This document shows, in pieces, positions 3,347 through 5,864 of a stretch of DNA of 5,864 nt (positions are counted from its first letter, which is position 1; each line of letters opens with the position of its first letter). The stretch comes from a virus (Duplodnaviria; Heunggongvirae; Uroviricota; Caudoviricetes). The notes beneath the pieces were generated by a model, which searched no databases, was not told the origin of the DNA, and saw only the letters and a program-made list of their open reading frames with translations. Made by a program: the position numbers and the translations under genes. The DNA lies in the IMG/VR virus record IMGVR_UViG_2778261567_000003, one strand, 5' to 3'.

Positions 3347-3861
3347 TGTTCTTTAAAACATCAAACCCTTCCGCGCTGGCCGCGTGGCAAAAATACCAGC
3401 AGGACTGCCAGACGGTAAAAGATGAGGCGAAACGCCTTGAGGCCGTGCTGAATGTTGCGTGCCGGTCGGTATTTGAATTCAGTATCAGTGGTTTTTGTTT
3501 TAAGGGACTGCGTTTTACGGAGGACAAATATCCTTTTCATCGTGATTTATGGCGAAAACCAACTGCGTCGAATGGCTGGAGCTGCACACCGCGCACATCA
3601 CGTATTCCCAAAGCCCTGCGCGTTGCCTCTGACGAACTTAACAGTCTGTGGCGTGAATATTCGCCCGTCACGTATGCCAGAACCGATGCACTGTTGTTCT
3701 GGCTGGGCATTGATTTCTCGGCAATCCTGTTTGGCCCTGTGGAGTGGTTCTGCGTTGACGATGTGATTTACCTTCAGTGCGGCGTAAAACCCGCAAAACA
3801 GAAAATGACCGAAATTCTGTCTGATGAGTTTTATGCTGCTGAAAAGCGAGTCAGGGGGTGA
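3346..3861 (+). CDS. hypothetical protein (171 aa)
   Basis: ATG at 3346 overlaps the TAA of the previous gene (TAATG), with GGAGGTG at 3334..3340. No recognisable motif. Confidence 0.65.
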   Translation: MFFKTSNPSALAAWQKYQQDCQTVKDEAKRLEAVLNVACRSVFEFSISGFCFKGLRFTEDKYPFHRDLWRKPTASNGWSCTPRTSRIPKALRVASDELNSLWREYSPVTYARTDALLFWLGIDFSAILFGPVEWFCVDDVIYLQCGVKPAKQKMTEILSDEFYAAEKRVRG

Positions 3862-3864
3862 TGC

Positions 3865-4416
3865 ATGATGATATTACAACCCATGGGGAGAAAAGGCCGT
3901 GCACCCGCTCATGTTCGCGCATGGACACCTGAAGAAGATGCGCTGCTGATTGCGCTTTATCCATCCACCCCGGTTAAGGATATTGCTGTCAGGATAAAAA
4001 GAAGTTTCTGGGGTGTACATAACCGGATTGTTTTATTACGCGGTACTTACCCGGAGTTGCTCAAATGCAAACGCCTCAGATTTAAACCTGATGAAGATAA
4101 ATTTATCCGAAAAAATGCCAGAACAATGACCGGTAAGCAAATAGGAGAATATCTGGGGCGAGACCGGGATTCTGTCCACAATCGGGCGCGATATATTGGC
4201 GTAAGCATGAAAAAATACGGAGAGTTGCTGCCCTTCACCCGTATACCTGACGATGATGTTCATCTTATTCGTGAATTACGGGATGCTGAATCACCACGAC
4301 GTCTTACCTTCCGGGAAATTGGCGAGAAATTTGAATTATCCGAGAGTACGGTGAGTTTTATTTATCACCATCGCCGGACTGCCGAAGATGTTGTATTACG
4401 GGAGTTAATGCCATGA
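3865..4416 (+). CDS. putative DNA-binding protein with three tandem HTH/Myb-like repeats (183 aa)
   Basis: ATG at 3865 (or 3868), 3 nt after the previous stop, G-rich SD 3854..3860. Internal repeats: WTPEEDALLIALYPSTPVKDIAVRIKRSFWGVHNRIVLL / KPDEDKFIRKNARTMTGKQIGEYLGRDRDSVHNRARYIG / IPDDDVHLIRELRDAESPRRLTFREIGEKFELSESTVSFIYHH. Confidence 0.7.
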   Translation: MMILQPMGRKGRAPAHVRAWTPEEDALLIALYPSTPVKDIAVRIKRSFWGVHNRIVLLRGTYPELLKCKRLRFKPDEDKFIRKNARTMTGKQIGEYLGRDRDSVHNRARYIGVSMKKYGELLPFTRIPDDDVHLIRELRDAESPRRLTFREIGEKFELSESTVSFIYHHRRTAEDVVLRELMP

Positions 4417-4529
4417 TAACGACATTATTTGTTGAATCAGATGAACCCCTTGTATGTGCCGCCGGAATGCCGGTCTGTGGCGGAACGCTGACCGGTGTTT
4501 ATTTCGGGGATTTGCGCGGTTATCCCTAG
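4413..4529 (+). CDS. possible micro-ORF (38 aa)
   Basis: ATG at 4413 overlaps the TGA of the previous gene (ATGA); GGAG at 4401..4404 with an 8-nt spacer. Translation MITTLFVESDEPLVCAAGMPVCGGTLTGVYFGDLRGYP. Below the size cut-off of the supplied ORF track; only the RBS and coupling geometry support it. Confidence 0.3.
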   Translation: MITTLFVESDEPLVCAAGMPVCGGTLTGVYFGDLRGYP

Positions 4530-4559
4530 CATTCACTGGATGACGCATTTCCGCCTGAT

Positions 4560-4745
4560 ATGGAGGCTGTCGTGCTGATTGTTCAGTATGGTGACCAACA
4601 GGAACTGCGCATCGGCCATATGGGGTATGAAGGCTTTTTTGTTGATGAAGAAACCGGAGCCTGCCTTGAAGATGAAGACGGACAGGTGACGCACTGGTGC
4701 CATATTTCATCTTTACCGGAATTACAGGAGACGCCCAATGGATGA
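4560..4745 (+). CDS. hypothetical small acidic protein (61 aa; may start at GTG 4572)
   Basis: Open frame with ATG at 4560; an internal GGAGG (4562..4566) precedes GTG 4572 and could instead be the RBS for that start. Its 3' end overlaps the next ORF by 8 nt. Confidence 0.45.
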   Translation: MEAVVLIVQYGDQQELRIGHMGYEGFFVDEETGACLEDEDGQVTHWCHISSLPELQETPNG

Positions 4746-4878
4746 TCAAATAGTTGAATGTCCCACCTGTGGAAATGAAGCCCCGGAGTATCTGAAAGAG
4801 TGCCCACATTGTGGTGAGGTAAAATGTAATCACTGCGATATGGGCGACGACACTGCATGTATGAATTGTGAGGATTAA
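4738..4878 (+). CDS. zinc-ribbon-like microprotein, 46 aa with four CxxC motifs
   Basis: ATG at 4738 with AGGAG at 4726..4730. Translation MDDQIVECPTCGNEAPEYLKECPHCGEVKCNHCDMGDDTACMNCED contains CPTC, CPHC, CNHC and CMNC. Not in the supplied ORF track (under 60 aa). Confidence 0.55.
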   Translation: MDDQIVECPTCGNEAPEYLKECPHCGEVKCNHCDMGDDTACMNCED

Positions 4879-4882
4879 TAAT

Positions 4883-5170
4883 ATGGAAAAAGAAATCAAA
4901 TTTGCGCCTATAGATATCGACGAAGAACTGGCTAAAATCGGCATGCCTGAACGTATGCGTGACATTATCGAATATGCGATAAAAGAAAATCTTGGAGCCA
5001 GAGAGGCACTGTCGATAATGGAGCGGGAAATTAATCTGATTAATGAAGCGGTTTCTCTGGAAAACAAAATAGCCCGCGAGGAATACGTTCGCCGCAGGCT
5101 TGGTGTTGATGGTTCAGCAATTCTTACATCTGAACATTATGCAAAAATTTTTAATCTTTTTTCGCGGTAA
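4883..5170 (+). CDS. hypothetical protein (95 aa)
   Basis: ATG at 4883 with GAGGA at 4870..4874; charged, helix-like translation (MEKEIKFAPIDIDEELAKIG...). Looks AT-rich by eye. Confidence 0.6.
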   Translation: MEKEIKFAPIDIDEELAKIGMPERMRDIIEYAIKENLGAREALSIMEREINLINEAVSLENKIAREEYVRRRLGVDGSAILTSEHYAKIFNLFSR

Positions 5171-5390
5171 TGCCCATGCAGGCCCGGAGATTGTCGAAAT
5201 GCCAGTTTGTATTAATATATGAGCCATCCTGGTGTCCCTCTGCGCTTTGGGGTGCGGCACTTTTTTGAGCAATATTGATAATATGTGTTGCCTCCTCACG
5301 GGAAATAACCCCCTTATCGAACAGGGTTACCATAAGATTTCCAGCCATTGTGAATGCGGCAACATCAAGGGCATTTTTTATATCTGACAT
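5151..5390 (-). CDS. hypothetical protein (79 aa) on the opposite strand to the rest of the operon
   Basis: Minus-strand ATG (5388..5390) is preceded by AAGGA with a 7-8 nt spacer. The region has no convincing + strand ORF. The N-terminal ~45 aa look protein-like (MSDIKNALDVAAFTMAGNLMVTLFDKGVISREEATHIINIAQK). Overlaps the 3' end of the + strand gene 4883..5170 by 20 nt. Confidence 0.4.
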   Translation of the reverse strand: MSDIKNALDVAAFTMAGNLMVTLFDKGVISREEATHIINIAQKSAAPQSAEGHQDGSYINTNWHFDNLRACMGITAKKD

Positions 5391-5418
5391 AGATTTTTCC
5401 TTTTATGTTAATTGACAT

Positions 5419-5446
5419 GGCGGTGCGGTAACACCGCCCATTTTTT
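5419..5446 (+). terminator. candidate rho-independent terminator or attenuator hairpin (+ strand)
   Basis: Perfect inverted repeat GGCGGTG (5419..5425) / CACCGCC (5432..5438) with a 6-nt loop, followed 2 nt later by TTTTTT (5441..5446). The stem can extend with a single-base bulge so the T-tract abuts it. On the minus strand the hairpin is followed by GTCAATT, so it is directional. Confidence 0.5.
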
Positions 5447-5460
5447 ATGGAGCCACGATA

Positions 5461-5864
5461 ATGAATCGCGCTTCCCTGATTACCTTAATACATGTCGCAA
5501 AACGCGATCTACAGCTTGACCGGGAGACCTATACATCCGCGCTGCTGGCAGCCACCGGCAAAACCAGCTGCCGGGATATGTCACCGGATGAGTTATCCCG
5601 CGTGCTGGATGTTTTAAAAAAACGCGGTTTTAAAGTGCGCCAGAAGCCGGTTAACCGGGCCTTAAAACCGGGTACGGTGACCGCCAAAATTCGTGCCATC
5701 TGGAAGGTGATGCACCGGCAGGGCTTTATCTCTGATGGTGCGGAAACCGCTCTTAACCGCTGGGTGAAATCGCAGACGGCCGCGCAGAACGGCGGCGAAG
5801 GTGTGGCAAACTGGCAGTGGCTGGAGCAACACCCCGCCCTGGCCTCAGATGTGCTGGAGCGTCT
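5461..5864 (+). CDS. gemA: GemA/gp16-like protein (Mu-like prophage DUF1018 family), 3'-truncated by the window edge
   Basis: ATG at 5461 with GGAG at 5449..5452. Translation MNRASLITLIHVAKRDLQLDRETYTSALLAATGKTSCRDMSPDELSRVLDVLKKRGF... fits my recollection of the GemA/gp16 N-terminal pattern, and its position downstream of gam matches Mu synteny. Open to the end of the window. Confidence 0.72.
   Translation, partial: MNRASLITLIHVAKRDLQLDRETYTSALLAATGKTSCRDMSPDELSRVLDVLKKRGFKVRQKPVNRALKPGTVTAKIRAIWKVMHRQGFISDGAETALNRWVKSQTAAQNGGEGVANWQWLEQHPALASDVLER

Follow-up and report, generated by a model that had tools for sequence, protein, structure and literature searches.

A predicted three-domain helix-turn-helix protein from the early operon of a Mu-like prophage is a short member of phage family PHROG 323

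The gene at positions 3865..4416 (+) of the window, by which we mean the whole 5864-bp stretch of DNA analyzed here, encodes a protein of 183 aa (21.5 kDa, pI 10.0; stop codon TGA at 4414-4416) and is a new, shorter member of PHROG 323, a phage protein family that has already been catalogued. The open reading frame is the one given in the first-pass annotation, which had described its product as three tandem helix-turn-helix (HTH)/Myb-like repeats. Its architecture and its place in PHROG 323 are both established, and with moderate confidence we read the protein as beads on a string, consisting of a basic N-terminal arm, a duplicated Myb/SANT-like pair of domains (R1 and R2), and an acidic HTH domain (R3), that together would form an accessory early DNA-binding modulator. 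Recognizing the family links three items that had previously been unconnected, namely Mu gene 9 (E8), T5 D5, and the early accessory gene examined here, which Mu-like and P2-like phages carry. In other respects it is a routine multi-HTH phage protein, and no long-standing question is opened by it.

Domain architecture and fold

AlphaFold2, run on a 24-sequence alignment, yields three three-helix bundles (mean pLDDT 82.6; roughly 83-93 inside the domains). The helices lie at residues 22-31, 37-43, and 48-59 in R1 (residues 20-59; 3922..4041, +), at residues 75-84, 90-97, and 101-110 in R2 (residues 73-110; 4081..4194, +), and at residues 129-140, 149-156, and 160-169 in R3 (residues 129-181; 4249..4407, +), which has a fourth helix at residues 173-181. 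The pTM of 0.44 means that the arrangement of the domains relative to each other is not predicted. The three segments that had originally been aligned by eye (residues 38-58, 91-112, and 150-169) coincide with helix 2, the turn, and helix 3 of the three predicted bundles, and an acidic motif does precede each helix 1, reading W20-T-P-E-E-D (within WTPEEDALL) in R1, F73-K-P-D-E-D in R2, and R125-I-P-D-D-D in R3. In all three bundles, the first helix is N-capped by this x-P-[DE]-[DE]-D motif. The N-terminal arm (residues 1-19; 3865..3921, +; pLDDT 46-65) has the consensus MxLKPMGxPGxCPAHVRAW and a pI of 12, is conserved across the family (alignments A1 and A2), and may well contact DNA. In the linker between R2 and R3 (residues 111-128; 4195..4248, +), K117 and G119 of the motif K-x-G-[DE] are invariant in both family alignments. 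A basic charge (pI 9.7-12) is shared by the arm, the first two domains, and both linkers, and R3 is acidic (pI 5.2 for residues 129-183).

That the three segments align with one another is clear from profile comparison and only partly so from the single sequence. In self-alignments against 1000 shuffles, R1-R2 scored well above chance (z=4.0; 6/1000 shuffles reached the score), R2-R3 was marginal (z=2.7; 28/1000), and R1-R3 was not significant (355/1000). When the segments were cut from A2, a diverse family alignment of 26 sequences with 32-71% identity to the query, and compared using hhalign, all pairs were far above chance: R1-R2 gave P=4.2e-17 (probability 98.8%, 43 columns), R2-R3 gave P=1.8e-7 (probability 93.8%, 37 columns covering all three helices), and R1-R3 gave P=3.4e-5 (probability 72%, 21 columns). 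Reversed-sequence controls were null (P=0.13-0.63, probability 0.1-0.4%, 1 column), and a narrower alignment left the ranking of the pairs unchanged. To judge from these comparisons, R2 is clearly a duplicate of R1, with a 53-residue period as in c-Myb R2R3, and R3 belongs to the same fold class but has diverged further. The AlphaFold2 bundles and the profile statistics together uphold the description of the protein as three HTH modules.

Searching the PDB sequences with the family profile identified c-Myb R2R3 (1h88_C) at E=3.4e-6 through both R1 and R2 (residues 18-106), in an alignment that is nearly gapless and hence indicates a Myb-like spacing of the repeats; B-Myb, v-Myb, and an archaeal two-HTH CRISPR-repeat-binding protein (2lvs) came next. 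The tandem repeat of ~50-aa three-helix units that is a feature of Myb/SANT proteins is present, W20 and F73 being 53 residues apart against a period of ~52. The tryptophan triad of Myb is not kept: W20 in R1 and F73 in R2 occupy the first position, and the second and third positions are aliphatic. The Pfam Myb matches, on residues 19-31, fall below the gathering thresholds (PF00249, 16.8 versus 24.4 bits; PF13921, 16.2 versus 22.9 bits); among the 26 family members, 13 and 15 match PF00249 and PF13921, respectively, at E<=0.01, and 19 match Sigma70_r4. Because the triad is missing, we describe the domains as homeodomain-like HTH modules of the Myb/SANT/GcrA-DBD kind, not as canonical Myb repeats. 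Unlike c-Myb R2R3 (1h88, 1mse, and 1gv2) and other R2R3 Myb proteins (WER, 6kks), which have two repeats, the present protein adds a third HTH, is of prokaryotic or phage origin, and retains one of the three Myb tryptophans. The reading of the third repeat as a generic HTH agrees with sub-threshold matches of residues 131-168 to Pfam Sigma70_r4, HTH_11, and AsnC-type HTH models, and a profile of R3 alone found just generic or designed HTH chains in the PDB.

By fold, the closest match was the DNA-binding domain of GcrA, and Myb, SANT, and Tc3 domains ranked next. The fold of the Caulobacter GcrA domain (5yiu) is similar, although no sequence relationship appeared in the PDB profile search, and GcrA combines one such domain with a sigma70-binding C-terminal domain that the present protein lacks. 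Orthology to GcrA (PF07750) was rejected on the grounds that there is neither a Pfam GcrA match nor the C-terminal sigma70-interaction domain. The archaeal CRISPR-repeat-binding protein Cbp2 (2lvs) is likewise small, with linked HTH domains, and was matched by the profile at E=2.3e-4 over residues 29-114 and as the second-ranked Foldseek match (probability 0.75); this is a weak match, and Cbp2 has two domains instead of three and is archaeal, with no phage context. Foldseek with the whole model found no PDB match at E<=1e-3 and returned only long, poorly superposed alignments to sigma factors (E>=0.09), a search that is uninformative because the domains are flexibly linked. Assignment as a sigma factor was also rejected, as Sigma70_r4 scores 21.7 versus 24.1 bits and TIGR02937 (NCBIfam sigma70-ECF; residues 146-168) 16.7 versus 42.9 bits, and region 2 is absent.

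RefSeq names the product "AsnC family protein", and residues 131-163 do match an HTH_AsnC-type model. The score of 21.2 bits lies below the cut-off of 27, though, and is confined to the HTH; the AsnC ligand-binding (RAM) domain is absent and the model is all-helical. The RefSeq name is therefore a misnomer, which the present assignment corrects. Equally, a chance pattern in a non-functional open reading frame is at odds with full-length conservation in E. coli, Salmonella, and Citrobacter, with an overall dN/dS of 0.19-0.30, and with repeat statistics far above chance. An AsnC/Lrp-family regulator or a chance repeat is accordingly hardly credible, and both were rejected: this is a real gene under purifying selection.

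Relatives and distribution of the family

The profile of PHROG 323 ("transcriptional regulator, D5-like") recognizes the protein with E=5.7e-58 and 198 bits, aligning residues 2-182 to profile positions 80-256, and recognizes T5 D5 (T5.118, AAS77164.1) with E=1.2e-71. An hhalign comparison of A2 with T5 D5 (probability 97.2%, P=3.8e-11, 164 columns) placed residues 17-183 on D5 residues 71-252. Both are early-expressed phage proteins in which R1, R2, and R3 all align, but D5 is longer (255 aa), with a ~70-residue N-terminal extra region, and the pairwise identity is 22%. Moreover, D5 belongs to a virulent phage and is needed for replication and late transcription, whereas the gene described here is carried as an accessory cassette by temperate phages of the Mu-like and P2-like kinds. 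In the T5 record, D5 is annotated as a DNA-binding protein that is needed for DNA replication and late transcription and has a role in early shutoff. According to a 2026 preprint, D5 is a nucleic-acid-binding HTH protein that has a toxic effect on cells and acts as a trigger of retron-Kva2, and a type IX retron senses D5 via its HTH surface. With D5 newly implicated as a retron trigger, the diversified short versions in temperate enterobacterial phages are ready natural variants.

Phage Mu gp9 (E8; AAF01133.2; 95 aa) shares 32% identity with the stretch from R2 through the linker to R3 (E=4e-10) and matches PHROG 323 at E=1.3e-28. Its gene and the present one are both located in the semi-essential early part of a transposable phage, but gp9 lacks the N-terminal arm and R1, and its gene precedes gam instead of following gp12. 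One of the loci collected here (L068, 1495-1782) is phage Mu gene 9 itself (AF083977, 5494-5781), and the Mu record labels gp9 a hypothetical protein. A blastp search against the Mu proteins matched only gp9, and the Mor/C gene of the prophage is a different open reading frame; membership of the Mor/C family was rejected. On sequence comparison, T5 D5, Mu gp9, and the present protein are one family with a variable number (2, 3, or 3-4) of predicted Myb/SANT-like HTH modules. In the literature on Myb-like phage proteins and Mu gp9, we found no functional study of a member of the family besides T5 D5.

The first-pass annotation had considered a triple-repeat DNA-binding architecture unusual for a small phage early protein. 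This view does not stand, given the membership of PHROG 323, the same three domains in T5 D5, and the wide distribution of the repeat module, for which a profile search of 1.84 billion cluster representatives returned 14,244 matches at E<=1e-3. Among these matches, arrays reach 10 matched stretches, and there is one helicase fusion. Three long metagenomic proteins (P0034, P0036, and P0044) contain about 5-9 stretches of a ~48-aa WT-x-EED...GR-x-x-x-x-V-x-x-R HTH repeat, and in P0034 the array is fused to a ResIII/Helicase_C helicase. BFVD likewise holds many multi-HTH phage proteins (17 matches at E<=1e-3), several of them fused to endonucleases. Myb-type HTH transcription factors have already been recognized in phages, where jumbo phages, Bacillus phage G among them, show an expansion of those related to firmicute RsfA (PMC7824862).

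Relatives with all three domains at full length are found in E. coli, Salmonella, and Citrobacter, and the family loci fall on two unrelated temperate-phage backbones. On the Mu-like backbone, the gene always follows gp11-like and gp12-like genes; on the P2-like backbone, which includes the cultured Citrobacter phage Shae_phiSM, it lies between cox and the replication gene A. A profile scan of genome contigs, with one representative genome per species, added just three distant metagenomic loci. Among complete E. coli genomes, 229 of 5426 carry the gene; this low frequency, and the fact that classical Mu has only the two-domain gp9 relative, indicate that it is dispensable.

Variable recognition helices and proposed function

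The third helix is the recognition helix in Myb and other HTH domains. In the present family, the third helices are the most variable structured elements, and conservation is highest in helix 1 of every domain, in the K-x-G-[DE] linker motif, and in helices 1 and 2 of R3 (DDDVHLIRELRD and FREIGEKF, within 4249..4407, +; family patterns D-x-D-V-x-L-I-R-x-L-R-D and F-R-E-I-G-E-K-F), with entropies of 1.07 and 1.18. R2 helix 3 (residues 101-110, RDSVHNRARY; 4165..4194, +) has the highest entropy of any structured element (2.75), and R3 helix 3 (residues 160-169; 4342-4371, +) is also variable. Against an allele of 72% identity, 19/32 helix-3 positions differ, compared with 34/151 positions elsewhere (Fisher p=7.6e-5); the differences include 6/12 positions of the fast-evolving predicted recognition helix of R1 (residues 48-59, FWGVHNRIVLLR; 4006..4041, +) and 5/10 of that of R2. 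Over the same comparison, the third helices have a dN/dS of 0.45-0.95, and helices 1 and 2 have one of 0.08-0.19. Relative to the scaffold, the predicted recognition helices of the three domains have evolved 5-10 times faster.

In the prophages that carry the 72%-identical allele, most flanking genes are 90-96% identical, and both whole alleles and single domains are swapped between prophages that are otherwise ~95% identical. A dS of about 0.6 implies that the allele was replaced through recombination and did not evolve in place, and one locus (L022) is an apparent intragenic recombinant. We consider it unlikely that the recognition helices are a diversifying surface, whether of a regulator that switches specificity from phage to phage or in an arms race with host immune sensors. 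If the arms-race version were true, this prophage gene would provide a natural panel of retron-trigger and escape variants.

The function that we propose for the protein is as follows. On induction, it would be produced from the early transcript, and the third helices of R1 and R2 would bind duplex DNA in adjacent major grooves, as in Myb R2R3, with the N-terminal arm assisting. R3 might serve as a third reading head or as a conserved protein-contact surface; its acidity (pI 5.2) means that a three-headed contact with DNA is not assured, and R3 may not touch DNA at all. By analogy to T5 D5, its most likely role is to modulate transcription and/or replication early in lytic growth as an accessory, non-core factor. 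Which DNA sequence it prefers probably depends on the allele, since the exposed residues of the recognition helices differ strongly between alleles. Recognition of a repeated or extended DNA site, as first suggested from the triple-repeat architecture, is plausible. The direct repeats that might have represented such sites did not materialize: in the window and in 11.8 kb of a related prophage (its early half, from the repressor gene to past the lysozyme gene), only short two-copy matches at chance level were found.

T5 D5 is an abundant, cooperative, largely non-specific duplex-DNA binder (1979-83 literature), and this counts against sequence specificity. A protein of the same family and the same three-domain layout could similarly accumulate early, coat duplex DNA cooperatively and without specificity, and globally damp or redirect transcription and replication. 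The poor conservation of the exposed helix-3 residues would be expected if charge and shape alone mattered, the lack of repeated target sites in the window and the early half of the prophage fits as well, and the functions annotated for D5 (replication, late transcription, and early shutoff) and its toxicity when expressed alone point the same way. However, the tandem R1-R2 pair matches the sequence-specific R2R3 domains of Myb, the concentration of allele replacement in the recognition helices and the intragenic recombinants look more like specificity switching, and D5 is 70 residues longer, with an N-terminal domain that the present protein lacks. We regard non-specific coating as a serious, though less likely, alternative.

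The strong conservation of R3 helices 1 and 2, together with the acidity of R3, could instead reflect docking of R3 on RNA polymerase/sigma or another host or phage protein, with R1-R2 as a mere DNA tether. GcrA as the best fold match and the weak Sigma70_r4 and sigma70-ECF matches at residues 145-168 are consistent with such a protein-targeting factor. Nevertheless, every sigma-type match is below its curated threshold (21.7 versus 24.1 and 16.7 versus 42.9 bits), the Foldseek alignments to sigma factors are not significant (E>=0.09), the sigma-binding C-terminal domain of GcrA and a Pfam GcrA match are both absent, and the conserved helices could be a simple hydrophobic or structural scaffold. 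This explanation seems to us quite unlikely, and we retain the accessory DNA-binding modulator as the preferred reading.

Prophage setting and neighboring genes

Along its entire length, the window shares 95% identity with a region described as "inserted Bacteriophage Mu-like phage" in a Stx-phage record. In the related prophage of E. coli O157:H7 FRIK804, the gene order is repressor, ner-like HTH gene, MuA transposase, MuB ATPase, five small open reading frames, and Gam, followed by three hypothetical genes, the gene for the "AsnC family protein", and five more small open reading frames, and then by gp16 (GemA-like), one Mor/C-family activator, lysozyme, and the late genes. The two genes that immediately precede the gene are homologous to Mu gp11 (68% identity; Pfam Gp11_C) and Mu gp12 (54%), and the genes 3' of it in the window include relatives of Mu gp13 and gp14, which places it within the semi-essential early region of a transposable phage. 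The gene therefore belongs to the early operon of a Mu-like E. coli prophage, with gp12-like and gp13/14-like genes on either side. A Shine-Dalgarno-like AGGGGG (3853..3858, +) stands 6 nt before the ATG, with the stop codon of the upstream gene (TGA, 3859-3861) between them, and the stop codon of the gene overlaps the start of the next in an ATGA (4413..4416, +). From these features, all read from the sequence, it follows that the gene lies within a tightly packed early operon and is translationally coupled to the gene downstream. Scans of the window for promoters and terminators detected no promoter in the vicinity of the gene, and shuffled sequences contained more promoter-like sites than the window did; an Rfam scan of the window gave no match. 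A known defense protein was rejected as a candidate, in that PADLOC matched 0 families at E<=0.01, and the neighboring genes were likewise unmatched.

The single Mor/C-family gene of the related prophage at locus L001 is 39% identical to Mu C versus 27% to Mor, and this phage, unlike Mu, appears to have no separate Mor and middle operon. Upstream of the Mor/C gene and downstream of gp16, a conserved hairpin terminator (AAATCCCGCCACAACGCGGGATTTTTATTTT) is located at L001 14555-14625, which is outside the window. It is followed by an AT-rich stretch just 5' of this C-like gene, and the arrangement resembles the early terminator/Pm region of Mu. These features would suit a protein that substitutes for Mor and activates the gene for a middle or late regulator. 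Such a role is very improbable, since the family is also found in P2-like prophages, where late control operates without Mor, and since Mu has Mor as well as the gp9 relative. Furthermore, the region 5' of the C-like gene is unchanged in phages with very different alleles of the protein. The terminator there is identical across alleles, and the differences downstream of it travel with the C-like gene itself, making a test of allele covariation at this site uninformative.

The coupled downstream gene (4413-4745, +), which matches PHROG 6925 (unknown function), is interrupted in the window by a TGG-to-TAG change at codon 39 (stop codon at 4527-4529). At L001 and four other loci that were checked, codon 39 encodes Trp and the 103-114 aa protein is intact, and the gene is 80-83% conserved even in Mu-like phages in which the D5-like protein is only about 50% identical.

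Compared with related prophages, the window is a mosaic. Positions 335-729, 2218-2770, and 4731-5487 are replaced by unrelated cassettes at L001 and other loci, with flanks that remain about 86-97% identical, and the early accessory region thus exchanges whole genes. The sole sizeable intergenic gap (2147-2230), between Gam and a DUF5420 gene, is AT-rich and kept among related prophages; a simple scan of it found no promoter or terminator consensus. Downstream of the coupled gene, a 46-aa open reading frame (4738-4878, +) with a CxxC...CxxC zinc ribbon shares 92% identity with the last 39 residues of Mu gp13, and the next (4868-5170, +) is 49% identical to Mu gp14; Mu gp13 and gp14 are both uncharacterized. 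On the reverse strand, inside the third variable cassette, a 79-aa open reading frame (5151-5390, -) with an AAGGA ribosome-binding site had no match in Pfam or PADLOC and may be an independently transcribed moron. A strong GC hairpin followed by a T run (5419-5438, +; GGCGGTG-CGGTAA-CACCGCC-TTTTTT) lies right before the start of gp16 (GemA-like) at 5462.
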